A program made the position numbers and the translations under genes. Positions 5,316 to 64,000 of a DNA stretch of 64,000 nt are shown in pieces. Source of the DNA: an uncultured Gammaproteobacteria bacterium. GTDB taxonomy: Bacteria; Patescibacteriota; Patescibacteriia; SBBC01; CAIJZX01. Numbering within the stretch: the first letter of the stretch is position 1; each line of letters begins with the position of its first letter. The DNA lies in NCBI GenBank assembly GCA_964518425.1, contig CAZFGG010000004.1, positions 5,701-69,700 of the forward strand, given 5' to 3'. The notes under the pieces were generated by a model that worked only from the letters and a program-made list of their open reading frames with translations, was not told where the DNA came from and did not search any database.

Positions 5316-6541
5316 TGGAGATCGGGGTAGAGCGGGAAAGCGCCAGCCAATTGGCGAATACCATCGGTAACTTTGCGTTTCACGGCTTCATCGGCTGGTG
5401 AGCGTAGGCGTTCAAGCAAGAGGTGTGTGAGTTGTTCAACGTCCTTTTCTTTCATCCCGCGTGAGGTGACGGCTGGGGTGCCGACGCGGATGCCGGACGG
5501 ATCAAGCGGTTTACGTGGGTCGTTGGGTATGAGGTTTTTGTTCACATAGATCCCAACCTCTTCGAGTAGTTTTTCCGCTTGCGCGCCAGTTAGGCCAAGC
5601 GGAGTGACGTCAGCGAGAATGAGATGATTATCCGTTCCGCCCGTCGCGACGCTCAGCCCATGAGCCGATAGTGTTGTGGCCATGGTCGTGGCGTTCGCCA
5701 ATGTTTGGGCCTGGTATATTTTGAAATTTGGCTCCAGCGCTTCGGCAAAGGCCTGGGCTTTGCCAGCGATCACATGATCGAGTGGGCCGCCCTGCAGGCC
5801 GGGCATGACCGCTTTATCAATCGCTTCGGCGTGTTGCTGCTTCGTCAAGATAATCGCGCCGCGCGGCCCACGCAAGGTTTTGTGCGTCGTTGTGGTGACA
5901 ATATCGGCGTGCGGGAATGGATTGGGGTGAAGATCGGTGACGATCAAACCAGCGACATGGGCCACGTCAGCCAAGTGAAGTGCGCCGACGTTACGGGCAA
6001 TTTCACCGAAGCGTTGAAAGTCGATTTGACGGGGATAGGCTGAAGCACCGGAAATAATGAGTTTAGGTTTATGCTCCTGCGCTAAGCGTTCGACCTCGTC
6101 GTAATCTATCAGACCATCGGCGTTGACGCCGTAGTGGACAATTGTGTAGAACTGCCCGGAAATGTTTCGTTTGAAACCGTGGGTTAAGTGTCCGCCGGCA
6201 GACAAGCTCATCGACAGGATCGTGTCGTGGGGTTTGAGCAAGGCCAGAAAAACTGCCACGTTGGCGATGGCGCCGGCGTGGGGTTGGACATTGGCGTGGT
6301 CGGCGCCGAAGAGTTTCTTGGCGCGATCAATGGCCAGGTTCTCGATCTGATCGACGATTTGATTACCACCGTAATAGCGCTTGCCCGGATAGCCTTCGGA
6401 ATATTTGTTCGTCAGCACGCTACCAACGGCTTGGAGAACGGCGGGCGAGGCTATGTTTTCTGAAGCGATCAGTGTTAAGCCGTCGCGCTGACGTTTAAGT
6501 TCAGCGGCCAGAAGTTTTTTCAGCAAGGGATCAAGCGACAT
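5312..6541 (-). CDS. glyA: Serine hydroxymethyltransferase
   Basis: 'LIASENIASPAVLQAVGSVLTNKYSEGYPGKRYYGG', 'TTTTHKTLRGPRG'. 409 aa. Confidence 0.95.
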   Translation of the reverse strand: MSLDPLLKKLLAAELKRQRDGLTLIASENIASPAVLQAVGSVLTNKYSEGYPGKRYYGGNQIVDQIENLAIDRAKKLFGADHANVQPHAGAIANVAVFLALLKPHDTILSMSLSAGGHLTHGFKRNISGQFYTIVHYGVNADGLIDYDEVERLAQEHKPKLIISGASAYPRQIDFQRFGEIARNVGALHLADVAHVAGLIVTDLHPNPFPHADIVTTTTHKTLRGPRGAIILTKQQHAEAIDKAVMPGLQGGPLDHVIAGKAQAFAEALEPNFKIYQAQTLANATTMATTLSAHGLSVATGGTDNHLILADVTPLGLTGAQAEKLLEEVGIYVNKNLIPNDPRKPLDPSGIRVGTPAVTSRGMKEKDVEQLTHLLLERLRSPADEAVKRKVTDGIRQLAGAFPLYPDLQ

Positions 6542-24702: not shown

Positions 24703-24957
24703 CTACTTCCCATTCCCGTCTTTCTTCTTGGCGTCCTGATTGGACGAGTCAGGGAGTGTTCCCGCTTCCGGCTTCCAGCGCTGGGCTCGCTGGCTCTCTT
24801 CCTGAATCCTGGTGTAGATCTCTTCACGGTGGACCTTGACCTCGGGCGGAGCCTCGATGCCAAGTTTGACTTGGCCCGAGCGAACTTCGAGGACAGTGAT
24901 TTTTACGTCATCACCGATCCTGATGTTCTCGCCCAGCTTCCGTGTGAGCACGAGCAC
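24703..24957 (-). CDS. csrA: Carbon storage regulator CsrA-family RNA-binding protein (C-terminally extended)
   Basis: GTG start preceded by AGGAGG at 6 nt. '[52 protein letters not shown]' matches the CsrA consensus. The ORF-track N-terminal extension is rejected. Confidence 0.85.
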
Positions 24958-25074
24958 GTAGTGCCTCCTTGTAGTACCCCGGATGGGGTATGATGAAAGA
25001 GCTAGGGTGGTATACTTGCCCCAGTCCTGAGGTACTGCAGTGAACGCCTCGGACCCTATCATAATCGCTGATTC

Positions 25075-26025
25075 ATGTCAAACCTGAGCCCCCTACAGAC
25101 TGCAATCCTTCGCACTTTAGCCTATTTTGACATCTTTGATTTTCCGCTGACCGAGGAGGAAATTTGGCGCTGGATTTACCCTCAGCAGCCAAAGAGTACC
25201 ATCACGGCCGAAGATGTTTCGGCCGCCCTTCAAGCTGGTCCGCTGGATACGATGATTGAACGGCAAGGAAAGTTTATCGTTGTGAAGGGTCGAAGTGTCA
25301 TTGTCCAAACTCGAGCTGAACGGAAGGTACGGAATGAAAAAAAATGGCGGCGCGCCCTGACCGTAGCGCGTTACGTTGAAATGGTGCCATTTATTAAGAT
25401 GGTGGCGGTGGTCAACACCTTAGCCATTGATAATGCGCGGCCAGAGAGTGACATTGATCTCCTGATCGTGATCGCTCCTGGTCACATCTGGCTAACGCGG
25501 ATGATCGTCACCGGGATCGTGGCCCTGCTTGGATACCGCCGACACGGTACCAACATTACCGACCGCGTCTGTTTAAGTTTCTACATGACGACATCCGAGC
25601 TCGATCTTGAATCGCTGAAACGGGAAGATGACGATCCACACTTTGCGTTCTGGGCCAGCGAGGCTGTGCCATTACTTGATGATGGAACCTATACGAAATT
25701 CGTCCAGGCGAATGCTTGGGTGAACAAGATGTTGCCAAATGCCTGGTCGTGGGATTGGCGACAACGCCTCATTAAGCCAAACAGCGGTCTCCAATCGATC
25801 AAAAATTTCTTTGAAATATTTTTTCAGTCGCCGATTGGCTTGAGCTTGGAAGTCTGGGCCCGGAATTACCAAATGAAGCGGATGGATAAAAACACGACCA
25901 GCCGGTCGAGTGAACCAACGACGGACGTGATTATTTCGGAGGATGTGTTGAAATTCCACGAAGCTGATCGGCGCTTAGTATACCGTCAAAAGTTCTACGA
26001 TCGACTACGATCGCTTGGATTATGA
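25075..26025 (+). CDS. Nucleotidyltransferase-fold domain protein (hypothetical)
   Basis: '[21 protein letters not shown]' hG[GS]...DhDh-type NTase motif. Its stop overlaps the next gene start by 4 nt (ATGA). Confidence 0.45.
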
Positions 26026-27635
26026 CCACTCGTCGAAATATTGCTTGGGTCGTTATTGTCATAACGATCATTTCGACCCTCGTCCTGTTTTTGCGTTTGC
26101 CGCGTACGCCGCTGACGAATTGGGATGAGGGAATTTATGCCGGGGTAACACAAACCATCCACGCCGGGGGATCATGGTGGTTGCCGACGTATCACGGCCA
26201 ATTATTTTTGGAAAAACCACCACTGACGTTCTGGCTGATGAACTTATCATTCGATGTGTTTGGCGTCAATGAGTTGGGCGTGCGGTTCTGGTCCGCACTG
26301 GCTGGAATAGCTACGGCGCTTCTGATCACGGTATGGACATGGCAGGCTACCCCCCCGAACCCCCCCTTATCCAAGGGGGGGAACCACAGGGCCTGGCTAG
26401 CGTTGTTGGCTGGACTTCTTTTTGTCAGCGGTCGGTTCATGTTTTTTCATGCTTTTCGGACCGGCGACACGGACGCGTTGTTGGTGTTCTTTGTGACCGC
26501 CACGCTCTACGCCTATTGGCGGACGAAAGATGACCAACGCTGGTGGTGGGCGGTGGGAATTTTCACTGGCTTGGCTATCATGACGAAATCATTTGTCGGA
26601 CTGTTGCCCCAGTTGATCATCGACCTTGATCTCCTGGTCAGTCGGGGATACCGGCACACTTCCTGGCGCCGGGCGATGCAAGGCCTGGGGCTCTTACTTC
26701 TTGTGGCGGCACCATGGCACATCGTGGTCGGACTGACGCATGGCCGGGAACTCTGGCATCAAGCGGTTGGCTTTAACCTGGTTGAACGCAGCTCAGCGAT
26801 TATCGCCAGCGCCAACGTTCCGGGGTACTGGTATGGCAAGGTATTCTTGGATTTTTTCTTTCCCGCGTCGTTTTTCATCGCCTGGGCAGTCTTGGTTGCT
26901 CTCAACCAGCGAAAGGAACCACTCAACAGACTTCTGTTGATCTGGGCTGGAGTGACAATCATTCTCTTTTCCCTAGCTCGCACGAAATACGATCACTACA
27001 TCCAACCCCTCTATCCGGCAGCCAGCTTGCTGATTGCCCTAGCCTTCATCCATGGTCTGGCCGAGCAACCGCGGCGATGGTTGTGGGTGGTGTTTGAACT
27101 CAGTACGGCGTGGATGATCGCCGCCATGCCCGCCCACTTAGCTCATTCGGGGTTGCTCTGGAACCTCACGCCGTATGGATTCTTACCGGTCGCCTGGGCG
27201 ACTCATGCAATGTTCCGGTGGTTAGTCGCGCTCATCGCGGCTTTGATTGTCGTGACTATCGCTCGAGTTCTTCAACCCCGGTTAGCACCGTTGATCGTTG
27301 GTGCGGCGATGGCGGCATATGTCGTTATTCTCAGCTTTGGCTGGCAGTATTCATATCTGAAACATCTGCCGACAACATCAAACGCGAAAGCGATTGCGGC
27401 CCAGGTCATATCTATCCACCCCCAAGATATTCGGGTAATCGATATTTCACATTTGTCAGAACCGGCGTTGTATTTTTACTTGGCCCGGATCGGCGTGCCG
27501 ATCACGGAAGCAACATCAGCCGCCCGATTTGAGGGTTCAACAATTATCACCACGATAACTTTATCGCCTACCCTCCAACATCAGGGCTATCATCAGGTCT
27601 TCCACCAGGGGCCATACGTGGCGTTGAGACAGTAA
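26022..27635 (+). CDS. GT-C family membrane glycosyltransferase (ArnT / PMT-like, GT39/GT83-type)
   Basis: N-terminus 'PLTNWDEGIYAGVTQ...GSWWLPTYHGQLFLEKPPLTFWLM' and at least 10 TM helices typical of ArnT/dolichyl-phosphate-mannose transferases. Translationally coupled to the upstream NTase-like gene. Confidence 0.7.
   Translation: MTTRRNIAWVVIVITIISTLVLFLRLPRTPLTNWDEGIYAGVTQTIHAGGSWWLPTYHGQLFLEKPPLTFWLMNLSFDVFGVNELGVRFWSALAGIATALLITVWTWQATPPNPPLSKGGNHRAWLALLAGLLFVSGRFMFFHAFRTGDTDALLVFFVTATLYAYWRTKDDQRWWWAVGIFTGLAIMTKSFVGLLPQLIIDLDLLVSRGYRHTSWRRAMQGLGLLLLVAAPWHIVVGLTHGRELWHQAVGFNLVERSSAIIASANVPGYWYGKVFLDFFFPASFFIAWAVLVALNQRKEPLNRLLLIWAGVTIILFSLARTKYDHYIQPLYPAASLLIALAFIHGLAEQPRRWLWVVFELSTAWMIAAMPAHLAHSGLLWNLTPYGFLPVAWATHAMFRWLVALIAALIVVTIARVLQPRLAPLIVGAAMAAYVVILSFGWQYSYLKHLPTTSNAKAIAAQVISIHPQDIRVIDISHLSEPALYFYLARIGVPITEATSAARFEGSTIITTITLSPTLQHQGYHQVFHQGPYVALRQ
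26350..26381 (+). repeat. Homopolymeric tracts C7-GAA-C7-TTATCCAA-G7 inside the GT-C glycosyltransferase CDS
   Basis: Read directly: acCCCCCCCgaaCCCCCCCttatccaaGGGGGGGaac. It encodes 'TPPNPPLSKGGN' in a predicted loop. Confidence 0.9.
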
Positions 27636-32628: not shown

Positions 32629-34563
32629 ATGCGTGCTCACCGTAGCCACGTGGCGGTGGCCGGTTTCATTTTTCTGTTGGCGGTAGCGACACAAATCAAC
32701 CCGCAGCATCGCGTCGATGCTGCGCCGACGGGCCTGCCGGGTACGAGCGCAATCAACTATCCCCACTTTGCCTTATACGACGGCAATCGAAGCTGGGGGT
32801 ACCCGACGATCAATGATGACGGTACGTTGAGCACCTCAACGATTGATCAACTGGCCAAATACTCGTTCATTACCCTCGAGCCAACGCCGTTTACCGACGT
32901 CCGGACGGATGTTATCGACCAGCTCCGTCAGCGGAACGCCAATATGAAAATCTTGGGCTACATTCTGCCCTTCTATGCCCTACGATCGTACAGCGATCCG
33001 AATTATTATTATCAGAAAATATGGGCCCTCGCGAATGACTCATCCGTCAGCGATCCGAATGCTGCCGCCGGTCCAAACAATAGCTGGCTCTACAAACAAA
33101 GCGGTTCGCTGTTCGCTGAATACTTCACCAACATCAACTTGGCTAAACGAACGTCCAACGGGGATGGGACCTATACGTATACCACCGCTGAAGCCATCGC
33201 TAACCTGATCATTCAAAATATTATTTCCAAACATGATTCCAATGGGCGCGTCTTGCTTGACGGAATGTTTTTTGACGGCATGACCTACGATATTGGATTT
33301 CTGGACGACGCCTATCATCTCGACTACGTTCGAGCCGGATATAGCGACGACCAAAGTTTTCGCGATGGATGGAAAACAGCGGTAGGTATTTTAGCCGATC
33401 GCTTACGCCAAGCGGCCGGCCCAGACTTTATTCTATCGGCCAATAGTGGAAACGGGACGTCAGCCCTCTACTCAAATTTCAATGGCTGGATGTACGAAAA
33501 TTTCCCGGCCCAAGAGGGTGGAACGTGGCAGAACAACATGTTCTGGTACGCCGGCGGATATATGTTCAATGAAAGCCTGTACCGACAACCGCCCTACAAC
33601 TTCCTCAATACCTGGACGAATGCGGATACCCCGACGGATCCAACCACGATGCGCCGTGAGCGCCTCGGTCTAGGTTCAGCTTCGCTCGGCTCAGGCTGGG
33701 CAATTTTCGGCGACGGGTCGCGAGGAACCGATTCACGAGCCGGCGGATATCGCTATGACCTGTGGTGGTTTGATGAATACGCGGTTGACCTGACCACGGG
33801 ACAGAGCAGTACGAGCGGCCAAAAAACCGGCTGGCGCGGACAACCAACGGCTGATATGTATCAAATGAGCCGCCCGAACGCAATGGCGGATTTGGTCCCC
33901 CTCCCGGGGCTCGAAACGAACGCGACGGGGTGGAACATTGGCTCGAACTCATATGGGTCGGTCAGTCGAGATACAACGGTCAGCCAAGTCGGTAACGCTT
34001 CGATCAAAACGCACGTGACCACCGGCGACAGCGTCGTCTGGTACCAAGTCAGCGCGGCCACGGCTTTACCATCACCGGTGACTTCGGGGTTGACCTATGC
34101 CCTGACGTTTTGGGCCAACTCTTCAACAGCGCGACGCATCAACGTAGTCTTGGCGCCGACCGGTCAACCGGCTCTGGCTGAGCAGTTAGTCCCGCTGTCT
34201 GTCGGCTGGAAACAGTATCAAATTGTTTTAACACCGAATTCGAGTGGCTTGGTCAATCTCCGTTTCGATGTCTCGGAGACGGCTGGGGACATCTGGTTTG
34301 ATGATATTCATGTCCAGCGAGGGGCGACAAGCGTCTATCGGCGGGACTTTGATCATGGTACCGTTTTGGTCAATCCTGATACGTCGGCTCAGTCGGTGAC
34401 TCTTGAGAAACCATATAAAAAAATTACCGGAATAACAGATCCTACGACGAACGATGGTTCAACGGTCACGTCGCTGAATGTGCCCGCTCAAGACGCCATT
34501 TTTTTACTGAACCTGGATATTACTCCGCCCAGCCCAGTGGCGGATTTGCAAGTCCGATCTTGA
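32629..34563 (+). CDS. Secreted putative glycoside-hydrolase-like (TIM-barrel GHL-type) protein with a C-terminal CBM4/9-like beta-sandwich
   Basis: Signal peptide. The central region resembles hypothetical GHL/GH114-like exopolysaccharide hydrolases. The C-terminal 'NIGSNSYGSVSRDTTV...IWFDDIHVQ' looks like a carbohydrate-binding module. Assignment is tentative. Confidence 0.35.
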   Translation: MRAHRSHVAVAGFIFLLAVATQINPQHRVDAAPTGLPGTSAINYPHFALYDGNRSWGYPTINDDGTLSTSTIDQLAKYSFITLEPTPFTDVRTDVIDQLRQRNANMKILGYILPFYALRSYSDPNYYYQKIWALANDSSVSDPNAAAGPNNSWLYKQSGSLFAEYFTNINLAKRTSNGDGTYTYTTAEAIANLIIQNIISKHDSNGRVLLDGMFFDGMTYDIGFLDDAYHLDYVRAGYSDDQSFRDGWKTAVGILADRLRQAAGPDFILSANSGNGTSALYSNFNGWMYENFPAQEGGTWQNNMFWYAGGYMFNESLYRQPPYNFLNTWTNADTPTDPTTMRRERLGLGSASLGSGWAIFGDGSRGTDSRAGGYRYDLWWFDEYAVDLTTGQSSTSGQKTGWRGQPTADMYQMSRPNAMADLVPLPGLETNATGWNIGSNSYGSVSRDTTVSQVGNASIKTHVTTGDSVVWYQVSAATALPSPVTSGLTYALTFWANSSTARRINVVLAPTGQPALAEQLVPLSVGWKQYQIVLTPNSSGLVNLRFDVSETAGDIWFDDIHVQRGATSVYRRDFDHGTVLVNPDTSAQSVTLEKPYKKITGITDPTTNDGSTVTSLNVPAQDAIFLLNLDITPPSPVADLQVRS

Positions 34564-44989: not shown

Positions 44990-45976
44990 ATGCCCCTCAC
45001 CACACCCCCCTTAGTGACCGTGCTGGTTCTGAATTGGAACGGCCTCTCGCATACATCCGAGTGCCTGCGCTCGCTCGAGCGATGCACGTACACAAATTTG
45101 CGAGTGGTCGTGGTCGACAACGGCTCAGCGAACAACGAGGCCGATCAATTGAGGAGTCTGTTCGCTGGCCGGATCAGCGTCTTTGCGGCTGGCCACAACC
45201 TCGGGTACGCCGGCGGCTGCAATTTCGGCCTCAAGAACATTGCTGTAACCGAATTGCCCGATTACCTGCTTGCCATCAACAATGATGTGGTCATCAGTCC
45301 CGATGCCATCGAGCACCTCGTTGCCGAGGCGGAGACCGATTCACGGTGCGCGATGGTGGCTCCCAGGCTCATGAATTATGTTCACCGAGAACGTGTGGAC
45401 AATCTCGGCCTAGCCCTCACGGTCACTGGCCTTGGGTTTGATCGCAAGACTGACCGCTACCCCTTATTCTGCCCAAATGGAGCCATGGCTCTGTATCGCT
45501 TTTCCGCGCTCTGGCAACTGCTAGGCATTCAAGGCGAGGTCTGGGATTCTGATTTTTTTGCTTACACTGAGGACCTCGACCTCGGTTTTCGACTGCGACT
45601 CCTCGGCTTCACCGCCAAGGCGTGCCCGAACGCCGTCGGCTACCACAAAGGCGGGGCTACCTCCGGTGGCGCCACCTCAGACTTCTCTCTGTACCAAGGT
45701 CACCGAAACAACCTGTGGTTTGTCGCGAAGGATTTCCCCAGCAGTATGCTGGCGAAACACAGCCTGGGAATCCTCGCTACGCAGCTCGGTACGTTCCTGC
45801 TCTACGCTCGCCGGCGTCGCCTCGGCCTCCTTCTCCGGGCCAAGTGGAGCGCGCTTCGGGGTATCCCTAGGATGATCATGAAACGCCGCCGCGTCCTCCG
45901 TCTCCGGCTACTCACCGATCAGCAACTCGCGGCAGTGATGATCCCGCGAGCTTACGTCTCTCCGTCGAGCACCTAG
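44990..45976 (+). CDS. Family-2 glycosyltransferase (rhamnosyl/galactofuranosyl-transferase-like)
   Basis: 'LVTVLVLNWNGLSHTSECLRSL...VVVVDNGSANNE', 'INNDVVISPD'. GT-A fold motifs. Confidence 0.75.
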   Translation: MPLTTPPLVTVLVLNWNGLSHTSECLRSLERCTYTNLRVVVVDNGSANNEADQLRSLFAGRISVFAAGHNLGYAGGCNFGLKNIAVTELPDYLLAINNDVVISPDAIEHLVAEAETDSRCAMVAPRLMNYVHRERVDNLGLALTVTGLGFDRKTDRYPLFCPNGAMALYRFSALWQLLGIQGEVWDSDFFAYTEDLDLGFRLRLLGFTAKACPNAVGYHKGGATSGGATSDFSLYQGHRNNLWFVAKDFPSSMLAKHSLGILATQLGTFLLYARRRRLGLLLRAKWSALRGIPRMIMKRRRVLRLRLLTDQQLAAVMIPRAYVSPSST

Positions 45977-46738: not shown

Positions 46739-46873
46739 GCGGGGTGGTTTGGCCGACGTTGTCTACCTAAGACACGGCTGCACGTCTTCACCGCAGCAAC
46801 CCTCGGCCGCTCTTTGACAATTGGACGTGCGGATCCGTCCGTGCGCCCAAACACAACCCAAAGGAGGGTCGTC

Positions 46874-49189
46874 GTGAGACGGATGTGCTGTCTGTTTGTC
46901 GTGGGCGCGTCACTTTTCCTCAGTGTGCCGCGGTCCGCGCAGGCTACGTGCCCTGGAAACTGGGGTGATTCGCTCGCCACCTACCGCAGCGTGGTGGCCA
47001 ACTCGAACGGCACGGACGTTGGCTGTTCGAATGGCAGCAGCTCGTACGGGTACAAGTATCAGTGCGTTGAGTTCGTGAAGCGCTTCTACGGAGAGGCGAT
47101 GCACTTCTCGTCAACGCCCTGGTCAGGTGACGGTGTCGACTACTATGGCTCCGCTGCCACCAAGGGATTGCGGCAGTTTGCTGACGGCGGGTCGGTGAAG
47201 CCCAAGGAGAACGATATCCTCTGCTTCTCCGGCAACACCTTCGGGCATGTCGGCATCATCACCGAGGTAGGCTCCAACTACGTCAAGATGATCGACCAAA
47301 ATCGCACCACCTCTGGGGGATCAAACAATCCGAAGCAATTGACCCTGAGCGGCCCGAGCGGTGGGTGGTCTATCTCGAGTTTCAGTGGCTCGTACCCCGT
47401 CCAAGGCTGGCTCCGAGGCTACACTTCGGACTACAAGGATCAGACACCCAGCGGCACCGCAACCCTCACACCAGGGCAGGCGCTGTACTTCAAGGTCCGG
47501 TACACGAACACGAGTCACGCCAACGCGCCGCATTGGAAGAACGACGGCGGGAGTCAGTCCGTCGAGCTGCGGTCATGCACGAGCACGGGAGTCGAGACGA
47601 GTTCTTTCCTGTACCCCGTGAGCGGTCAGACCACATGGCTTGATCCAACCGATCGCAAGCGCATCGTGCACATGACGGAATCGGACGTAGGAGGAAACAC
47701 GGGAGTCGCCACGTTTGAGTTCTGGGCCAAGGTCCCTGAGTCCGCGACGCTGGGGACGCACAACGTCTACTTCCGCCCCTACCATCAGTCTGGTCAATGG
47801 ATTGAGGAATGGGACGGGATGTACTTCTCAATCAATGTTGTTGCCCCAATACCCGATCCGGCGTACGGATTGATCCTTCGGAATCCCTCAACCGCCGAGT
47901 GGTGGACGAGGGTGTCGAACGGCTTGGCCTTCGCCTACCCGCCTGGAGCCAACACGCCAGCTGACCTTTGGATCTCCGGATGGGCTCTTGACGACGGCAG
48001 CTACACCTTCACTCCTTACGTCGGTGACTTAAACGGCGACACCTACGACGACCTGGTCGTCGAACGCAGTGACTGCAAGTGGTACGTAGCTTGGAACAAC
48101 CAAGACGGATCATTCACCTCGCAAGGATCACCGATTCTTAACCCGTGGGCCACGTCGCCGTCCCCTGGCAAATATTTCTTCTGGTTCACCAACGTGACCG
48201 GAGATGCCAAGGACGAGCTCCTGACCTACGATGCCTCTAACGGCAACTGGTACGTCTGTACGTTCAACACCAGCACGAATACCTTCGACAACTGCAGCAC
48301 CTGGTTGACGTGGGGTGGTGGTGTCGGAACGTTTCAGCCACTCGCCGGAGATTGGAATGGCGACGGCAAGAGCGATATCTGCCTGCGCAATCCATCCACC
48401 GGCAACCACTACGTCCGGTTATCCTCTGGCACTGGCTTCTACCAGGGCACGAACGACAACTGGATCGGCTGGGGCGCGGGCAGCGAGTTCATCCCGATCG
48501 TCGGAGACTGGAACGGCGACGGCAAGGACGACCTGATGCTATGGAAAACGTCCACCGGCGAGTGGTTCGTCCGAACGTCAGATGGCACGGCCTTCGTCTA
48601 CCCCTCGGGAAGCAACTCTCCGGCCGACCGCTGGATGGTCTGGGGCGATCCGAGCTACACGCTCTTTACGGGCGACTTCAATGATGACGGCAAGGTCGAC
48701 GTTGGATTACGGAATCCAAGCACTGGCGACCACTGGGTTCGCACCTCGACTGGCCTCGCCTTCACCCAACCCTCACCAGACAACTGGTTGGCAGGGTGGG
48801 GCGGTAGTTCCTACCAGCTGCTGACCGGACGGTTTGGCAACGGGGAGCTGGGCGGTGGGTTCTCGTTGCAGCCAGCGCCTCCTGAAGATGATCAGCCACC
48901 TCCGGCGGTGCCTCTGTCGTTCAGGATTTGGGTGGCACCAAATCCAACCACGTCGAATGCTACAGTCAACTTCGCCTTGCCGACGTCTGATCGGGCCAGC
49001 ATCTCGATCTACGACGTCAGTGGTCGTGAGGTAGCTCAGTTCCCCGAGGAACCCTATGGCGTCGGCCAGCACACGCTTACGTGGAGCAGGACCAGCCCCC
49101 GTGGAGGACGGGTGGCGGACGGCATCTACTTCCTGACGTTTCGGTCGACACTTCACACGATCAGCAAGAAGATCATTGTTCTCAACTGA
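46874..49189 (+). CDS. Secreted CHAP-domain amidase/peptidase with FG-GAP repeats and a T9SS-type C-terminal sorting domain
   Basis: SD AAGGAGG 6 nt before the GTG at 46874. Signal peptide 'MRRMCCLFVVGASLFLSVPRSAQA'. CHAP domain 'YQCVEFVKRFY...FGHVGII'. At least 5 FG-GAP units ('GDWNGDGKSD', 'GDFNDDGKVD'). C-terminus 'VAPNPTTSNATVNFALP...ISIYDVSGREVAQ...ADGIYFLTF...KKIIVLN' matches the Por_Secre_tail pattern. Confidence 0.7.
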   Translation: MRRMCCLFVVGASLFLSVPRSAQATCPGNWGDSLATYRSVVANSNGTDVGCSNGSSSYGYKYQCVEFVKRFYGEAMHFSSTPWSGDGVDYYGSAATKGLRQFADGGSVKPKENDILCFSGNTFGHVGIITEVGSNYVKMIDQNRTTSGGSNNPKQLTLSGPSGGWSISSFSGSYPVQGWLRGYTSDYKDQTPSGTATLTPGQALYFKVRYTNTSHANAPHWKNDGGSQSVELRSCTSTGVETSSFLYPVSGQTTWLDPTDRKRIVHMTESDVGGNTGVATFEFWAKVPESATLGTHNVYFRPYHQSGQWIEEWDGMYFSINVVAPIPDPAYGLILRNPSTAEWWTRVSNGLAFAYPPGANTPADLWISGWALDDGSYTFTPYVGDLNGDTYDDLVVERSDCKWYVAWNNQDGSFTSQGSPILNPWATSPSPGKYFFWFTNVTGDAKDELLTYDASNGNWYVCTFNTSTNTFDNCSTWLTWGGGVGTFQPLAGDWNGDGKSDICLRNPSTGNHYVRLSSGTGFYQGTNDNWIGWGAGSEFIPIVGDWNGDGKDDLMLWKTSTGEWFVRTSDGTAFVYPSGSNSPADRWMVWGDPSYTLFTGDFNDDGKVDVGLRNPSTGDHWVRTSTGLAFTQPSPDNWLAGWGGSSYQLLTGRFGNGELGGGFSLQPAPPEDDQPPPAVPLSFRIWVAPNPTTSNATVNFALPTSDRASISIYDVSGREVAQFPEEPYGVGQHTLTWSRTSPRGGRVADGIYFLTFRSTLHTISKKIIVLN

Positions 49190-49196
49190 ACCAAGT

Positions 49197-49235
49197 CCTC
49201 CCCCCCTCTGTTTAAGAGGTGGGGGAGTTTTTTTT
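49197..49235 (+). terminator. Rho-independent terminator (CCTCCCCCCCTCT-gtttaa-GAGGTGGGGGAG + T8)
   Basis: Long GC stem then TTTTTTTT. It separates the plus-strand CHAP gene from the convergent minus-strand array. Confidence 0.8.
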
Positions 49236-53742: not shown

Positions 53743-55734
53743 CTATGCCGATGTGGTTGACCCGTCAAGAGTTACACCAACGGTCAGGGTTGTGTCCGTC
53801 GGGCCGAGGACGCCTTCAAGCTTGAGCAGCGTGAGTCGGGACGGCGTGTAGGTTCCTAGCTCCGTGTTTCGGATGGTCCTGACGTGGATCCTTGCCCGGC
53901 TTGCCAGGTCATCCTGAGTTAGCCCGAGGCGGAGCCTAGCCGCTCGGATCCGTCCGGGCAGCCCGTCTCGCTCAGGGACGAGTCCTGAGCCAAGGACCGA
54001 TTCGATTGCTGGCCAGCGGCGAGACAGGGGCACGTTGAGGCCACGTTCCCAGCCGGCCACGGTCTGATACCAGCACCCGAGTTTCTTGGCGAGGGTTTGT
54101 TGCGTCAGGCCGACATCCATCCGCCGCTGGCGAATCCGGTCGCCCAAGGTGACGGGGCAGTGCGGATAACCCCTTGGGAACACACGCGGTCTGGCAGCGG
54201 TCAGTCTGAGAGCGGTAAAAGGCAACGCAACAGTGAAGTTGTGTTGCCTTTTACCTACGTCTTCGGCGGAGCAGGGAAAGGGGCTAAGGTCAATCTCGAC
54301 AACCTCCTTTCCCACCTGGATCTTCTCGACGATGGCTTCGATGATGGCCTGCTTTTCCTCGGCGGTGAGGGTCGGCCAGCGGGCATAGAGGTCGCGGGTT
54401 TCGGAGAGGATCTCATCCCGGCCGAGGAACTGAACCTTCAGGAAGTCCAGCTCCCCCTGAAGCCTGGGCAGCTCCTCTTCCAAGCCCTTCAGCCGCTCTT
54501 CGAGCGGGCGATAGGTCCGGCCGAATCCTTCGGGTGAAATCTGGTCGGTCACGTAGAGCCGATAGATCTTCTCCATCTCCTGCCGGACTTTGGTCAGGTC
54601 CCCATCCAGGCTGACGAGCCGCTCCTCCTTGGCTTTGATCTCCTCGTCAGCTTGCCCGAGGTGCCGAGCCACATCGTCGGGTGAAAGGAAGAAGTCCCGC
54701 AGCTGTTCATGGAAGACGGCTTCAAGATCGCCGACCGCGATCTTGTTCCGGCACCTTCGGCAGATGTATTTCCCGGCTTGGTAGCTGGCGTCGACGTACA
54801 TCTTGCCGCCACAGTGACAGTGGGCCACGCCAGCAAAGAGGTGGAGCGGCTTGCGCGCCGGTCGCTTCAGACGCTCTCGCTGCTGGTCGAGGATCGCCAG
54901 GCACGCCGCCCACGTCTCGGCCGGGATGATCGGTTCGACGGATGAGAGCACCCACTCATCCTGCGGCTTGAGCTTCCAGGCCTTCTTCTCTCCGAGCGAC
55001 TTCGTGTAGTTGGCCCGACGCGTGCCCTTGGCAATGGGATCACGCAGCAGCCGATCGATCGAGGTGTCAGAAAACTTTCCGCCACCCCGCGTGCGGTAGC
55101 CCTTCTCATTGAGTAGCCGGGCCACCGCTTTCTTGCGGCGGTGCTCGAGGAACAGCTCGTAGATGAGCTTGCGGATCGGCGCTTCCTGCGGGTCCGGCCG
55201 GAGCTGGCGGTCTTTCCACTGATAACCGAAGGGTGCAGCACCGCCGGTTGACTTGCCGAGCTTGGCGCGGATCGACACCGACGCGGCCACGCGCTCGCCG
55301 ATTTCCTCCCGCTCCCACTGCGCCATGGCCGCAATCATCGTGTAGAAGAGCCGGCCAGCCGGCGTCGAGGTGTCGATGGCCTCTTGGAGCGAGATGAGAT
55401 CGGCCCCGTCTCGCCGAAAAATATCCGCAAAGTCCAGCAGCTCTTTGGTGTTTCGCGCCAGCCGAGCCAGCTTTGAAAAAATCAGGCCTGTGATGTGGCC
55501 GCTGGCGATGTCCTGGAGCATCCGTTTCGCTTCTGGATGCCCCATCACGGATTTCCCGCTCACCGCTTCGAGGTGATAGACCTCGCGGATCTTCCAGCCC
55601 TTTGACTCGGCGTAGGCGCGGGCACGCCGTTCGTGATGCTCCGGGCTTTCGCCCCTGGCTTGGTCTTCGGTCGAGACGCGGATCCAGATCCCGACAGGCT
55701 TCGCCTGCTCGTGTGCCCCAGTCTTGGTGCCCAT
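53743..55734 (-). CDS. Large serine recombinase with two C-terminal XRE-family HTH domains
   Basis: Resolvase catalytic 'IWIRVSTEDQ', recombinase domain, zinc ribbon 'CHCGGKMYVDASYQAGKYICRRCRNK', coiled coil. Then 'LTQQTLAKKLGCWYQTVAGWERG' and 'LTQDDLASRARIHVRTIRNTELG' HTH_XRE-like units. Confidence 0.8.
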   Translation of the reverse strand: MGTKTGAHEQAKPVGIWIRVSTEDQARGESPEHHERRARAYAESKGWKIREVYHLEAVSGKSVMGHPEAKRMLQDIASGHITGLIFSKLARLARNTKELLDFADIFRRDGADLISLQEAIDTSTPAGRLFYTMIAAMAQWEREEIGERVAASVSIRAKLGKSTGGAAPFGYQWKDRQLRPDPQEAPIRKLIYELFLEHRRKKAVARLLNEKGYRTRGGGKFSDTSIDRLLRDPIAKGTRRANYTKSLGEKKAWKLKPQDEWVLSSVEPIIPAETWAACLAILDQQRERLKRPARKPLHLFAGVAHCHCGGKMYVDASYQAGKYICRRCRNKIAVGDLEAVFHEQLRDFFLSPDDVARHLGQADEEIKAKEERLVSLDGDLTKVRQEMEKIYRLYVTDQISPEGFGRTYRPLEERLKGLEEELPRLQGELDFLKVQFLGRDEILSETRDLYARWPTLTAEEKQAIIEAIVEKIQVGKEVVEIDLSPFPCSAEDVGKRQHNFTVALPFTALRLTAARPRVFPRGYPHCPVTLGDRIRQRRMDVGLTQQTLAKKLGCWYQTVAGWERGLNVPLSRRWPAIESVLGSGLVPERDGLPGRIRAARLRLGLTQDDLASRARIHVRTIRNTELGTYTPSRLTLLKLEGVLGPTDTTLTVGVTLDGSTTSA

Positions 55735-57013: not shown

Positions 57014-60000
57014 TCATCCCTTCTTCTTTAGGCGGCGAAGGGCCTTAGCAATCACGGCCGACACCGCTCCATGCTTGGCTTCCTGTTCCTCGGCTTGCCC
57101 GGGACGGCGACGGACGCGGACGCGGTAACCGCGCACCGTCGACTCCTCGGCTGGTTGGAGCGAGTGCAGTCCACCGAGAAGATCAAGGACTTCCTCCGGG
57201 CTGACGAGGTGCACGCGCTCAAACTGTTCCGGGGTGAGCGCAGCCTTGGCCAGGGTGCGGATATGCCCGAGGCGACGCTTTTCCCCAGAAACTATCACCA
57301 CGAAGGAGAATCCTGCGGCCACACACTTCTGAAGATTTTGCGCCTCGTGCTCAGCCGGGGAGCTGACGACAATTTCGCAGGCGACCGACGTTCCATTCTT
57401 TCGAAGCGCAACATCCACACTCCCCAACCCATCGAGTACCGCTTCCTCGATCGTTGCGCCCCAGCCGTTCGCGAGTGCCCAGCGTCGAATGAGGTCTTGG
57501 AGGTACTTGTGCTGCGCACCGCCTCGTCCGGCCGTGGACGGAAGTGTCGCCGAATCGACGACCGAAGTGGTTGCCGCCACCGGTGGCAACGGTGAGCTGA
57601 CCGGAACGGGCCTCGCGTGTCGCGGTGAGGACGCTGGTGTCGGTTCCTCGACAGCTGCCGCCGGTGCATCTGCCTCCCGCCCGGACCGGATGATCGCTTC
57701 AATCTCGGCTCTGGGCCGGGCGTACTGCTCCCGTGATGCGGCAACAACCTTCGCCCGATTAGTTTCGGCGACTGCCTCGTCGAGAGCCGACAAGAGCGGA
57801 GTGCGAAGGTTGAAATCCCAATCGGCTCGTTCCACCCGGGCAATAGCTTCACCGGTGCCGAGATTCTGGAGGTCGTCAGCGTTGAAGCTGGAGAAGCCCT
57901 TCGCCAGAAGCCGAGCATCCTCGTCACCGACTCTGAAGGAGACACGCGTGGCTGGATTGGCGAGGACGGAGGCCAGCACGTCGCCACTGCGACTCTGGAG
58001 CTGTCGCAAGTCCTGGTGAGCAAGCACCAGTGCCAAGCCATACTTTCGAGCGCCGGAGAGAATCTGCGCCATCGAGGGGGTAACGAAGTGGTGGAATTCG
58101 TCGATGTAAAGGTAGAAGGGCCGGCGCTTCCCTTCGGCTACGTCTTGTCGGCTCATCGCCACCTGATGGAGCTTGGAGACGAGCAACGTCCCAAGCAGAT
58201 GTGCGTTTTCCTCGCCAATCGCCCCGTGCGAGAGCCGACAAAGAAGGATCTTTCCCTCGTCCATGACTCGCCGCAGGTCAAGCCGGCTATCTTGCTGGGC
58301 CACCATGTACCGGATCGGCTTTGGGCGAAGGAAGGAGTCGAGGCGCGTCAGAATCGGGGCCTGCGGTCGGCCACGCAGCAGCGGAAATTCTCGCTCCCAA
58401 AAATAAATGACGTCCGGGTCGCGAACGGTCTTGAGGAATTCCTTCCGGAATCGATCTTCGACCAGGAACCGCCGCAGGTCCACCAGCGTGCCGCCCTGCT
58501 CGCTTTCAACGAAGGCCAGCACGGCGTTCCCGAGCACGGACGTCATCTGGTCGCCCCAGCTCATGGACATGCGCTGGAACACCATCACGAGGTCTGATGA
58601 CAGGAGCGTTTTCTCGAGATCCGAGGCGGCCGAGAGGATGTTGAAGCCGATCGGGAACTCGGCATCTGCCGGGTCGAGCAAGATGACGTCTTGAAGACGG
58701 CCCTCAGGAACAAGGCCCAGAACGCGATCAATCAGATCGCCGTGAGGATCGAAGACGGCGAGGCCTTCGCCGTTCTCAAGGTCTTGTCGGATGAGATTCA
58801 GCAAGAGCGTAGACTTCCCAGTGCCGGATGCTCCGATGACGTACATGTGTCGCGATCGGTGATCGGCGGAGAGCCTGACCTCGTCCACCTGATCATCGTG
58901 GACGTTCTGTCCAAGGCAAACACCTTGGCTCAGGACGGACGGGGGTGCGGCCTTTGTCTTGTGTCCATGCCGCAGCAACCGCGGGTCGCGAACGCCACTG
59001 GTCGGCAGGTGCACGAGCGAGGCGAGCTCCTCGACACTCAGGAGCATGCCGCTGCGATGTGAGCGCCGGCCGAGGAGATCATCCTCGTGCTGCTGGGACG
59101 AGTAGTCACCGTCTGGCTGCAGCGGGATGAGTTCATTTGCGAGTGGATCGCTCAGGGCTCCCATGGCACCGGCCACCTGGCGTGCCACCGCTATCGCCCG
59201 CCCACGCGTTGGGCTCTTGATCCCGACCCGAATGACGCTGGCGAACAGCGGGCGCGCCACCTTCGCCTTGGCGAGGGCGGAGATCTCCGGCGCATCGATA
59301 AAAAACGGAGACCCCTGTTCGTCCAGAACCGCGCGCAATATTTCGCGTGCCCAAGGCTGGCGCGCTCGGCAGGCTAGTACCTGGAAGAGCCCTGCCTCAC
59401 CAGCCCGCAGATTGGAGAGTGCACCCACCACCCCAGCCAGCGGATCGACGTCAAATTTTCTTACCGCACGGAGGGGTACCATGAACTCGTGGGCCAAGCC
59501 GAAGTCCACTACGACGGCTTCACCGCCGAGCGCGTCCCACCTCGGGGCCACGGCTTCACGTCCCCGAGAAACGAGGATTTCGGGAAAGTAGGCCTTCAGG
59601 CATTGCGACAGAACCGGCTCGTCTTCGGCTGAACACGTGAACAACAGCCGGGTCGATTCTTCGGCTCCGAACAGCTCAAAGGCAATCGGGCCAATGGCGG
59701 TAGGAAGAGCGAGAAGGAACTGCTCGGCGGCCTCGCGAGAAACATCGAGATCCGGCGGCACAGCAACAAGCAGCTGTGCGATCTCTTCGTGCCCGCGCCA
59801 CCGACCAGGTGTCGGCTCGTCGAAACTGCTGTCTTCACTCGCCTCGGTCGGCCTGCCTCCAGATGTGCCGACGAGCCGATCCGTCAGACGACTTAAGAGT
59901 GTCGGGCGGCGACCATCATCGAGTCTGTCCGGTGACGTCGCGATCTGCGGAAAATAAAATGGCCTGAACGGCGGCTCAAGTTCGACCGGCTCTGGCCATA

Positions 60001-60067
60001 GCTGCCAACCGCGGCCTCGTCTTTCCCAGGCGTAGAAGTGATCAGTCAGCGACTCGATCGAAGACAC
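57014..60067 (-). CDS. HerA/FtsK-superfamily P-loop NTPase (DUF87/TraD-like core) with large N-terminal and C-terminal extensions
   Basis: Walker A 'VIGASGTGKSTLL', 'LAVFDPHGDLID', Walker B 'FYLYIDEFHHF', 'LALVLAHQDLRQL' (TraG-D_C-like). C-terminal 'SVDVALRKNGTSVACEIVVS' is restriction-endonuclease-like. 1017 aa. Confidence 0.65.
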   Translation of the reverse strand: MSSIESLTDHFYAWERRGRGWQLWPEPVELEPPFRPFYFPQIATSPDRLDDGRRPTLLSRLTDRLVGTSGGRPTEASEDSSFDEPTPGRWRGHEEIAQLLVAVPPDLDVSREAAEQFLLALPTAIGPIAFELFGAEESTRLLFTCSAEDEPVLSQCLKAYFPEILVSRGREAVAPRWDALGGEAVVVDFGLAHEFMVPLRAVRKFDVDPLAGVVGALSNLRAGEAGLFQVLACRARQPWAREILRAVLDEQGSPFFIDAPEISALAKAKVARPLFASVIRVGIKSPTRGRAIAVARQVAGAMGALSDPLANELIPLQPDGDYSSQQHEDDLLGRRSHRSGMLLSVEELASLVHLPTSGVRDPRLLRHGHKTKAAPPSVLSQGVCLGQNVHDDQVDEVRLSADHRSRHMYVIGASGTGKSTLLLNLIRQDLENGEGLAVFDPHGDLIDRVLGLVPEGRLQDVILLDPADAEFPIGFNILSAASDLEKTLLSSDLVMVFQRMSMSWGDQMTSVLGNAVLAFVESEQGGTLVDLRRFLVEDRFRKEFLKTVRDPDVIYFWEREFPLLRGRPQAPILTRLDSFLRPKPIRYMVAQQDSRLDLRRVMDEGKILLCRLSHGAIGEENAHLLGTLLVSKLHQVAMSRQDVAEGKRRPFYLYIDEFHHFVTPSMAQILSGARKYGLALVLAHQDLRQLQSRSGDVLASVLANPATRVSFRVGDEDARLLAKGFSSFNADDLQNLGTGEAIARVERADWDFNLRTPLLSALDEAVAETNRAKVVAASREQYARPRAEIEAIIRSGREADAPAAAVEEPTPASSPRHARPVPVSSPLPPVAATTSVVDSATLPSTAGRGGAQHKYLQDLIRRWALANGWGATIEEAVLDGLGSVDVALRKNGTSVACEIVVSSPAEHEAQNLQKCVAAGFSFVVIVSGEKRRLGHIRTLAKAALTPEQFERVHLVSPEEVLDLLGGLHSLQPAEESTVRGYRVRVRRRPGQAEEQEAKHGAVSAVIAKALRRLKKKG

Positions 60068-62231: not shown

Positions 62232-64000
62232 TTACGCCGCCGGCTGATAGAGGAACTTCTGGAACCCGGCGAAAACTCGGCCAATTTCCTCCGGTTCGCC
62301 GAGGTCGGTCACCGCGTCATTGATGGAGTCGTGGTACTTGAGCCGCAGCAGCGGCGTCAACTTCGACTGGTCAAGCTCCTCCACGCCCACGGTCACGTAG
62401 TGCGAGAGCACGAAGTCCAGAAACGCCTGCTGCTTCGCGGTGAAGTGAGCCGCGATCTCCACCTTGGCTTTCAGTGCTCGCGCTTCGCGCGTGACGGGAG
62501 CGAACGCGTAGGCGACATAAGCCAACACGTCGAACAGGTCGCTTTTCTCCGCGTCGATAATTTTCTGCATCTCCGCGAGCTGTTCCCGTCCAAAACCACG
62601 TTCGGCCAAGCCCTGTAGCAGTCTTGCGCGCGTATCCGGCGCGCTCCAGATGGCTCGCAGTTCGGCTTCATCCCTGAAGAACTCAGGTAGTTTACCGAAG
62701 AGCGTTTCCATGAACTGCTGTGCTGACATCGGCGTGCCGTCTGGATGCCAGAACGTCGTGACCATCATGTGCTGGATGTTGCGCGCCTTGCCGTCAGCGA
62801 GCTTGACCTTGACCTTCGTGCGCGGCGGCACTGGATCCGGCGCTGGTCCTGGCGTGGGCGGAGGCGATAGCGGACCCGGCCCGGGCGAGACAGGTTTCGG
62901 TTCCGGCTCGACAGGCTCGCCATCCCACTCTCGATCACTGAAGTGGTGGTACGCCTTCACGAAATCGTAAATCGTGAAGTAGTCCTTTCCATCGTAGAGG
63001 CGCGTGCCTCGCCCGATGATCTGCTTGAACTCGATCATCGAGTTGATTGGACGCATCAGGACGATGTTGCGAACGTTGCGCGCGTCCACACCGGTCGAGA
63101 GTTTCTGGGAGGTCGTGAGGATGGTTGGCACGAGCTTCTCGTTGTCCTGGAAGTCGCGCAGGTGCTGGTCACCGAGCGCTCCGTCATTGGCCGTGACCCG
63201 GTGGCAGTAGTTCGGGTCCTTGCTCGACTTTATCTGGTTGATCAGATCACGAACCGCAAGGGCGTGATCCTGAGTGGCGCAAAACACGAGCGTTTTGTCG
63301 TTCTGGTTGATCTGGTCCATAAATATTTTGACCCGATGCGCCTCGCGCTCCTTGATCTCGATGATCTTGTTGAACTCGGTCTCCGTGTACACCTTGCCGC
63401 TCTCGACCTCTCCTTCCACGAGCTGGTCATCCGGCGTGTAGACGTACTCGTCGAGCGTGGTCGAGATCTGCTTCACTTTGAACGGGGTCAGGAAACCGTC
63501 GTTGATCCCGTCCTTGAGCGAGTAGATGTAGACCGGGTCGCCGAAGTAGGCGTAGGTGTCGACGTTGTCCTGTCGCTTCGGTGTGGCGGTCATGCCGAGC
63601 TGCACGGCGGGCGCGAAGTAGGTCAGGATGTCGCGCCAGTTGCTTTCGTCGTTGGCGCCTCCGCGGTGGCACTCGTCGATGACGATGAAGTCGAAGAAGT
63701 CCGGTGGGTACTCGCCGAAGTACGGACTGGGCTTGCCGTCCTTGGGCGGCCCGCTCATGAAGGTCTGAAAGATCGTGAAGAAGATGCTGCCGTTCTTCGG
63801 GACCCTGCCCTTCTTCCGGATGTCGCTCGGAGCTATGCGCACGAGCGCATCCTCAGGAAATGATGAGAAGGCGTTGTATGCCTGGTCGGCGAGGATGTTG
63901 CGATCCGCCAGGAAAAGAATGCGCGGACGCCGCGTCGGCTCGCCACTCAGGTTCCATCGCGAGTGAAACAGTTTCCACGCGATCTGAAACGCAATGAAGG
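62232..64000 (-). CDS. hsdR: Type I restriction enzyme R subunit (HsdR), C-terminal ~590 aa; N-terminal part beyond the window edge
   Basis: Helicase motif II 'FVIDECHRG', motif III 'GMTATP', 'YFGDPVYIYSLKDGINDGFLTPF', and an HsdR-specific C-terminal domain ('LFDVLAYVAYAFAPVTREARA'). The reading frame stays open to position 64000. Confidence 0.85.
   Translation of the reverse strand, partial: FIAFQIAWKLFHSRWNLSGEPTRRPRILFLADRNILADQAYNAFSSFPEDALVRIAPSDIRKKGRVPKNGSIFFTIFQTFMSGPPKDGKPSPYFGEYPPDFFDFIVIDECHRGGANDESNWRDILTYFAPAVQLGMTATPKRQDNVDTYAYFGDPVYIYSLKDGINDGFLTPFKVKQISTTLDEYVYTPDDQLVEGEVESGKVYTETEFNKIIEIKEREAHRVKIFMDQINQNDKTLVFCATQDHALAVRDLINQIKSSKDPNYCHRVTANDGALGDQHLRDFQDNEKLVPTILTTSQKLSTGVDARNVRNIVLMRPINSMIEFKQIIGRGTRLYDGKDYFTIYDFVKAYHHFSDREWDGEPVEPEPKPVSPGPGPLSPPPTPGPAPDPVPPRTKVKVKLADGKARNIQHMMVTTFWHPDGTPMSAQQFMETLFGKLPEFFRDEAELRAIWSAPDTRARLLQGLAERGFGREQLAEMQKIIDAEKSDLFDVLAYVAYAFAPVTREARALKAKVEIAAHFTAKQQAFLDFVLSHYVTVGVEELDQSKLTPLLRLKYHDSINDAVTDLGEPEEIGRVFAGFQKFLYQPAA

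Follow-up and report, generated by a model that had tools for sequence, protein, structure and literature searches.

A 64,000-nt stretch of contig CAZFGG010000004.1 (forward-strand positions 5,701 to 69,700; hereafter the window, numbered from its first base) carries three 7-nt homopolymer tracts, C7a, C7b and G7, inside a gene for a membrane glycosyltransferase of the GT-C class. These tracts make up most of an 11-codon insertion that, in an alignment of 21 homologs, is found in the window protein and its closest ortholog alone, and the insertion appears to have stayed self-complementary in both lineages, with the homopolymers serving as its arms in the lineage of the window. The explanation we favour, at slightly less than even confidence, is a self-complementary insertion in a permissive loop whose arms evolve in concert, so that the runs are a frameshift liability and not an evolved switch.

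The tracts are rare in the lineage and are not dictated by the peptide

The first-pass annotation of this DNA had reported C7, C7 and G7 within 32 bp. Reading the sequence and counting its runs gave the same result: the plus strand reads GCTA CCCCCCC GAA CCCCCCC TTATCCAA GGGGGGG AACC, with all three tracts inside 26346-26392, and the translation (T110-P-P-N-P-P-L-S-K-G-G-N121) agrees with the loop peptide that had been given. The window has a GC content of 0.556 and is a 64-kb part of the genome, to which our statements on the genome refer. Under independent bases, 11.9 G/C runs of at least 7 nt are expected in it and four were observed, three of them clustered in 32 bp, for which our own arithmetic gives a chance of roughly 1e-6. 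The fourth run, a C7 at 49200, lies in the stem of a terminator-like hairpin, and the window contained no other intragenic G/C run of at least 7 nt and no further notable simple-sequence repeat. Related Patescibacteria loci (n=16, 164 kb) are depleted of such runs about fivefold, with 6 observed vs 32.8 expected, and none occurs in their GT-C genes.

We then considered the runs against the peptide that they encode. Locally, CCC makes up 21% of the Pro codons and GGG 16% of the Gly codons. At this usage, the joint probability of the three runs given the peptide is 2.9e-5, and synonymous resampling of the gene reached at least three runs in 3 of 20,000 resamplings. Among the 28 PP dipeptides encoded in 1-42 kb, a single one is written CCCCCC, namely that at the tract site. 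Since these codon choices are improbable given the peptide, the runs are not its by-product; they are therefore a DNA-level feature and not the outcome of selection on the peptide. The tracts thus proved to be both real and non-random.

These figures bear directly on one rival explanation, in which selection would act on a Pro/Gly-rich turn (PPNPP...GG) between transmembrane (TM) helices, possibly one with an EF-P-dependent translational pause, and the runs would merely follow from CCN and GGN codons. Pro and Gly are helix breakers, the segment is modelled as coil between two long helices, and PP-containing motifs stall ribosomes. However, CCC and GGG are minority codons whose joint choice is improbable, the insert of the closest ortholog, LSRHTLLAKSEK, is free of Pro and Gly, and most homologs lack the insert. 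We consider selection on the peptide quite improbable as the source of the runs.

The first-pass annotation had named a sequencing or assembly artefact as its alternative, which would make the run lengths, or the whole segment, consensus errors. Homopolymers are error-prone in several sequencing chemistries, and the source is a metagenome-assembled genome (MAG). Yet the frame is open over 537 codons, with both halves aligning to homologs in frame; an independently assembled ortholog has an equally long insert of 33 nt that is palindromic around the same centre; and all 17 homopolymers of at least 7 nt within open reading frames (ORFs) leave those frames open, at a coding density of 92.5%. The open frame, the equal insert in the ortholog and the 17 frame-keeping runs together make an artefact very improbable indeed.

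The insertion lies in the TM2-TM3 loop of an ArnT/PMT-like enzyme

The 537-aa protein matches Pfam PMT_2 with 51.3 bits against a cut-off of 26.1, and the profile of its 21 homologs matches Cupriavidus metallidurans ArnT (CmArnT, 5ezm) at E=7e-65. Against the NCBIfam ArnT equivalog PRK13279 (lipid A Ara4N transferase) it scores 80.7 bits, below the cut-off of 567, which marks it as an ArnT relative and not an ArnT ortholog; its host is unlikely to possess lipid A. The AlphaFold model (pLDDT 89.5, pTM 0.91) retrieved 5f15 as the best Foldseek match (E=1.6e-17, TM-score 0.72), followed by PglB, AglB, OST and Pmt, and superposes on 5f15/5ezm with a TM-score of about 0.7. In addition, D35/E36, K65 and D151 are invariant in the 21 homologs and align with CmArnT D55/E56, K85 and D158, whose roles have been described (PMC7801869); the acidic D-E/D-D motif of the first extracytoplasmic loop, the EKPP lysine and the aspartate preceding TM4 are all present. 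The Pfam score, the profile match, the predicted fold and the invariant residues together indicate that the protein is a true ArnT/PMT-like GT-C enzyme, and the first-pass assignment to the membrane GT-C glycosyltransferases is upheld. With ArnT of C. metallidurans (5EZM/5F15) it shares the fold, these catalytic-side residues and, in the model, the helix order (TM1, the juxtamembrane helices JM1 and JM2, TM2, TM3). It differs from ArnT in falling below the equivalog score and in having an 11-residue insertion between TM2 and TM3, which is missing from ArnT and from most homologs.

In the 21-sequence alignment, the 11 extra residues (about P111-N121, with a gap placement ambiguous by one or two codons) occur only in the window protein (P0001) and in its closest ortholog (P0002, 56% identity, encoded at locus L001); they are missing in P0003 (54% identity), in P0004 and in all remaining homologs. 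This places the tracts in an inserted loop, as had been proposed. The insert of P0002 is also exactly 33 nt long, and its DNA contains no G/C run. Only two of the 11 inserted residues (L116 and K118) are identical between the two proteins, vs 56% for the whole protein, which points to weak constraint on the peptide. By pairwise identity P0001, P0002 and P0003 are close to a trichotomy, which leaves for the insert a history of one gain, possibly with one loss. As a separate observation, a C-terminal tail and some local motifs are common to P0002 and P0003 and missing from the window protein (columns about 600-675 of alignment A1), a hint that P0003 has lost the insert or that recombination took place inside the gene.

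On which side of the membrane the loop lies was judged from the published topology of ArnT and the helix pattern of the AlphaFold model. In the model, the insert region is coil between helices 84-109 and 122-146, with a pLDDT of 69 for block 111-120, and the helix 68-80, at 13 residues, is too short to cross the membrane. The insert maps to an R-rich segment of CmArnT (about residues 133-136) between TM2 and TM3. In ArnT, JM1 and JM2 lie within the first periplasmic loop, D158 in the external TM3-TM4 loop, and the TM2-TM3 loop is cytoplasmic (PMC7801869). From the alignment to this cytoplasmic segment we infer that the insertion sits in a cytoplasmic TM2-TM3 loop and not in a surface loop, so that in-frame loop variants would not be antigenic. 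The TM2-TM3 loop is structurally permissive.

The insertion appears self-complementary in both lineages

C7b and G7 form the arms of a perfect inverted repeat (Table 1), and C7a, 3 nt upstream of C7b, can also pair with G7. The stem is present in both the minimum-free-energy and the centroid structure of the predicted RNA and DNA folds, and it is one of only seven stems of at least 9 bp in the window, four of which are intergenic. Fold z-scores were uninformative, since dinucleotide shuffles keep the runs. Two more perfect inverted repeats of 9-10 bp, GCAGCATCGCGTCGATGCTGC and AGAACGGTTAACCGTTCT, were seen inside long ORFs, centred at 32713 and 36421.

The insert at L001 contains a 7-bp palindrome, CTTTTGG/CCAAAAG, whose codon-aligned centre is identical to that of the window stem; the background of stems of at least 7 bp at this locus is 1.8e-4 per centre. 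When the 9-pair structure was laid over the two sequences, 16 of its 18 cells were paired: four pairs are invariant, three differ in both bases (C-G to T-A), and the other two do not pair in L001. Synonymous resampling given the peptide reached the observed stem with P=0.0068 for the window and P=0.0079 for L001. Covariation shuffles reached the observed values in 31/500 and 64/500 cases, a weak control with only two sequences. Within the loop, the insert-less orthologs showed no stem of at least 6 bp; one 6-bp stem does occur upstream in L008, and one in L014, in the part encoding TM2. A palindrome at an identical centre but of different sequence suggests that the insert is a conserved self-complementary element. 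On this comparison, the insertion is probably older than the split from the closest known ortholog, with its palindromic position kept and its sequence not.

The same findings would be expected of a functional nucleic-acid structure, be it an mRNA hairpin, a DNA cruciform or a G-quadruplex on the template strand. Such a structure might pause transcription or translation just after TM2, serve as a site of RNA processing or stability, or be recognised by a protein, with C7a as an alternative partner of G7. The shared centre with its three compensatory double changes, the improbability of each palindrome given its own peptide, the dominance of the hairpin in the predicted folds and the rarity of such stems all fit, and the minus strand carries GGGGGGGTTCGGGGGGG, the sole tight-loop motif among the three G-quadruplex motifs predicted on both strands of the window. 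The candidate motif recalls the Neisseria pilE G-quadruplex, G3TG3TTG3TG3, in fitting G3-N1-G3-N3-G3-N1-G3 on the template strand. Unlike the pilE element, it lies in a coding region, and no recombination system or silent cassettes were noticed nearby.

Several observations weigh on the other side. Only the stem is conserved, the G-quadruplex motif and C7a being absent from the ortholog at L001; the comparison comprises two sequences; the uninformative z-scores lend no help; and no Rfam family matched the hairpin site, either at the gathering score or at E up to 1. Moreover, insert-less orthologs function without such a stem, and templated concerted evolution of the arms would yield the same pattern without any function. 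We therefore regard a functional structure as distinctly unlikely. An intrinsic terminator was rejected outright, as the stem is not followed by a T-run. We also rejected programmed -1 frameshifting at C_CCC_CCG with the hairpin, in view of a spacer of only 2 nt and of the short, truncated products of both alternative frames.

Slippage would truncate the enzyme, and the tracts are borderline for a switch

All six single ±1 slips in the three tracts bring in a stop at codon 125 or 170, and all six compensating pairs of slips restore the 537-aa frame with 2-6 loop residues altered. ON/OFF switching by slippage is thus mechanically possible, which is a prerequisite of the slipped-strand phase variation suggested in the first-pass annotation; as a whole, that interpretation is supported in part. 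It had named runs of 7 nt or more as the classic substrate. At 7 nt the tracts equal the cut-off used for phase-variable G/C tracts in Campylobacter (at least 7), and G7 of meningococcal siaD is reported to switch. On the other hand, the Campylobacter cut-off is the lowest published; the authors of PhasomeIt caution that tracts at their cut-offs may have a mutability of less than 1e-5, with variability documented for tracts of at least 8 nt; and an analysis of Neisseria set the cut-off at 9 or more, G7 being too common.

A contingency locus would go further than mechanical possibility. In that explanation, mutable tracts would have been selected because slipped-strand mispairing in them turns the glycosyltransferase, and hence a surface glycan, ON and OFF; there would be three routes to OFF, and a second slip elsewhere would restore the frame at the cost of 2-6 residues of a permissive loop. 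Glycosyltransferases are a typical phase-variable gene class. The consequences of slippage, the early position of the tracts (first 22% of the gene), the excess of the runs over codon-usage prediction in a lineage depleted of them, and the Campylobacter cut-off with the siaD precedent all count in favour. In form, the locus is close to the glycosyltransferase genes that vary in phase through homopolymers in Campylobacter, Neisseria, Haemophilus and Helicobacter: G/C runs lie in the 5' fifth of the ORF, ±1 changes truncate the product and the runs exceed codon-usage prediction. It differs from them in having tracts of only 7 nt, three short ones and not one long one, which its orthologs do not share, and in encoding a GT-C membrane protein of an environmental Patescibacteria genome, whereas most of the known phase-variable glycosyltransferases are soluble GT-A/GT-B enzymes from pathogens adapted to a host.

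Against a contingency locus stands the lack of recurrence: no tracts of the kind that would form a phasome were found in the sister insert, in the 16 related GT-C genes or in other genes of the window, and the 64 kb held no further simple-sequence-repeat candidate. Furthermore, 7 nt is borderline by the PhasomeIt caveat and the Neisseria cut-off, a single longer tract would mutate far more than three short ones, and variants of a cytoplasmic loop would offer no antigenic diversity. No frameshifted or fragmentary close homolog was found among 5.8 billion protein clusters, and no paper joining Patescibacteria or the Candidate Phyla Radiation (CPR) with phase variation was among the leading full-text literature matches. 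We think that the evidence does not support an evolved contingency switch and hold it to be unlikely.

Length variation was looked for in the sequence collections. The protein clusters of the GT-C product and of its upstream neighbour have one member each, from a single contig, and a contig look-up returned no record of a gene with exactly the GT-C product of the window. The closest match in the genome collection was 56% identical, with no second genome of the species in the searched collections. The lone match to the flank pattern in metagenome contigs was rejected as an unrelated high-GC sequence with a 49-nt gap.

It is also conceivable that the two functions are combined, in that a functional in-frame hairpin was kept across genus-level divergence by compensatory change while its arms and the spare C7 double as a three-tract ON/OFF switch. 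We find this combination improbable.

A proposed explanation: a permissive-loop insertion with arms evolving in concert

In the explanation that we favour, a real 33-nt in-frame self-complementary insertion would have been gained by an ArnT-fold GT-C enzyme, in its short TM2-TM3 loop, before the split from the ortholog, and would have been palindromic ever since in both lineages. In the lineage of the window, its arms would have been homogenised to C7TT and AAG7 by concerted evolution, most simply by quasi-palindrome (template-switch) correction together with slippage. The runs would be tolerated because the length and the sequence of the loop are weakly constrained. The gene is in the ON frame, with the runs as a frameshift-prone spot at which any ±1 change gives a truncated, inactive product. 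That template switching was the mechanism and that the switching is not adaptive are what we infer from the patterns described above.

Quasi-palindrome mutagenesis perfects imperfect inverted repeats by template switching and has been described in E. coli and phage T4. The window resembles its outcome in having a perfect inverted repeat whose arms differ from those of the ortholog by paired complementary changes. Here the process would be deduced from two endpoints, and selection on a hairpin gives the same pattern. A second point of comparison is offered by the Rickettsia palindromic elements, which are inserted in frame within protein-coding genes and are roughly 100-150 nt long. Here, too, palindromic DNA lies in frame in a conserved protein, in a tolerated loop; the insert differs in being 33 nt long, and its C7/G7 hairpin is the only one in the window besides a terminator. 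No other copy of the insert element was found within the window, which thus provides no evidence for a mobile repeat family.

Two other origins of the insert were rejected. A target-site duplication by a mobile element would call on the flanking repeats TGGCAGGC and TGGCTAGC, which lie 54 nt apart and misfit a 33-nt insertion. A tandem 10-nt duplication, suggested by the two occurrences of ACCCCCCC, is at odds with an insert length that is the same as the ortholog's; this equality implies that the second C7 arose by substitution.

A number of points weigh against the explanation that we prefer. The insert-bearing sequences number two, which leaves the covariation controls (31/500 and 64/500) weak, and the coincidence of the palindromes was spotted post hoc. 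The pairing of the arms covers C7b and G7; to account for C7a, one has to assume in addition that it pairs alternatively with G7 or that it was copied from a template. In a lineage that avoids such runs, three of them could equally mean selection for mutability or for nucleic-acid structure. Template switching is read from two endpoints, and the near-trichotomy of P0001, P0002 and P0003 leaves the gain of the insert with or without a loss.

Genomic neighbourhood and host

The gene upstream of the glycosyltransferase encodes a 316-aa protein with no Pfam or NCBIfam match and contains an A8 run at 25337. Because its stop codon overlaps the start of the GT-C gene, the two are probably co-expressed, and the 316-aa product is probably a partner of the glycosyltransferase. 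The order uvrA-csrA-unknown-GT-C-groES-groEL is conserved in the two closest relatives. A G8 at L001 4678 was considered as a 5'-end tract of the gene upstream of the ortholog, a layout classic for phase variation, and rejected: the 449-aa gene called at L001 4655-6004 is an ORF that extends too far, passing through csrA in antisense, and the ortholog of the 316-aa gene starts at the ATG at L001 5052, so the G8 is intergenic. In the window, the csrA ORF (24703-25062, minus strand) has 119 aa with a CsrA domain only at residues 37-88, and its homolog at L002 is called with 84 aa; the true csrA start is probably downstream of the first ATG.

Homologs of the GT-C protein are annotated as Candidatus Kerfeldbacteria or Patescibacteria, and the genome is Kerfeldbacteria-like (Patescibacteria). 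MAG records labelled 'uncultured Gammaproteobacteria bacterium' with GT-C genes include L004 (on the same contig as L001), L013 and L039. The other close matches of these GT-C genes are to Kerfeldbacteria/Patescibacteria, and L004 also has the uvrA-GT-C-groES-groEL synteny; judged by these matches, the Gammaproteobacteria labels look wrong.

Further downstream, the C7 at 49200 belongs to a terminator-like hairpin at 49198-49235, CCTCCCCCCCTCTGTTTAAGAGGTGGGGGAG, which is followed by T8 and lies just past the gene for the CHAP/FG-GAP/Por_Secre_tail protein. Over 42000-64000, the GC content climbs from about 0.52 to about 0.60 and remains at that level. This region, with a large serine recombinase, a coupling ATPase and a restriction subunit among its genes (Table 1), has the look of an island or an integrated mobile element; alternatively, the contig may be chimeric.

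Table 1 Coordinates of the tracts, the insertion and neighbouring features in the window
Feature	Position	Strand	Remarks
GT-C (PMT_2 / ArnT-fold) membrane glycosyltransferase gene	26022..27635	+	537 aa, intact, ON frame
C7 tract a	26350..26356	+	aCC CCC CCg, encodes T-P-P; from sequence reading and run count
C7 tract b	26360..26366	+	aaC CCC CCC, encodes N-P-P; left inverted-repeat arm, reaching 26368 (CCCCCCCTT)
G7 tract	26375..26381	+	aaG GGG GGG, encodes K-G-G; right inverted-repeat arm, from 26373 (AAGGGGGGG)
Lineage-specific insertion, 11 codons (33 nt), TM2-TM3 loop	26352..26384	+	residues about P111-N121; from the 21-homolog alignment
Perfect 9-bp inverted repeat CCCCCCCTT / AAGGGGGGG	26360..26381	.	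4-nt loop ATCC, centre 26370.5; C7b+TT pairs with AA+G7
G-quadruplex-capable motif GGGGGGGTTCGGGGGGG	26350..26366	-	template strand; G3-N1-G3-N3-G3-N1-G3; lineage-specific
316-aa gene upstream of GT-C	25075..26025	+	stop overlaps GT-C start (ATGA); same neighbour in L001 and L002
GT2 gene	44990-45976	+	within 42000-64000
CHAP/FG-GAP/Por_Secre_tail protein	46814-49189	+	within 42000-64000
Large serine recombinase	53743-55734	-	within 42000-64000
TrwB/TraG-like coupling ATPase	57014-60067	-	within 42000-64000
Type I restriction R-subunit-like gene	62232-63842	-	within 42000-64000

Implications

If neither a switch nor a functional hairpin is at work, which we judge most likely, the locus is an ordinary permissive-loop insertion of unusual sequence, and it carries a caution: clusters of homopolymers in a MAG gene prove by themselves neither phase variation nor assembly error. 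A conserved palindrome with a function, or one that perpetuates itself, would be a small and clean case of a hairpin in a coding loop that survives through paired changes of its arms. Should the tracts indeed switch, surface glycosylation under repeat-mediated phase variation would be known from the ultrasmall, episymbiotic bacteria of the CPR too, and the resulting surface variation could affect both host attachment and escape from phages. Were the hairpin and the switch both true, Patescibacteria/CPR would have their first described simple-sequence contingency locus.

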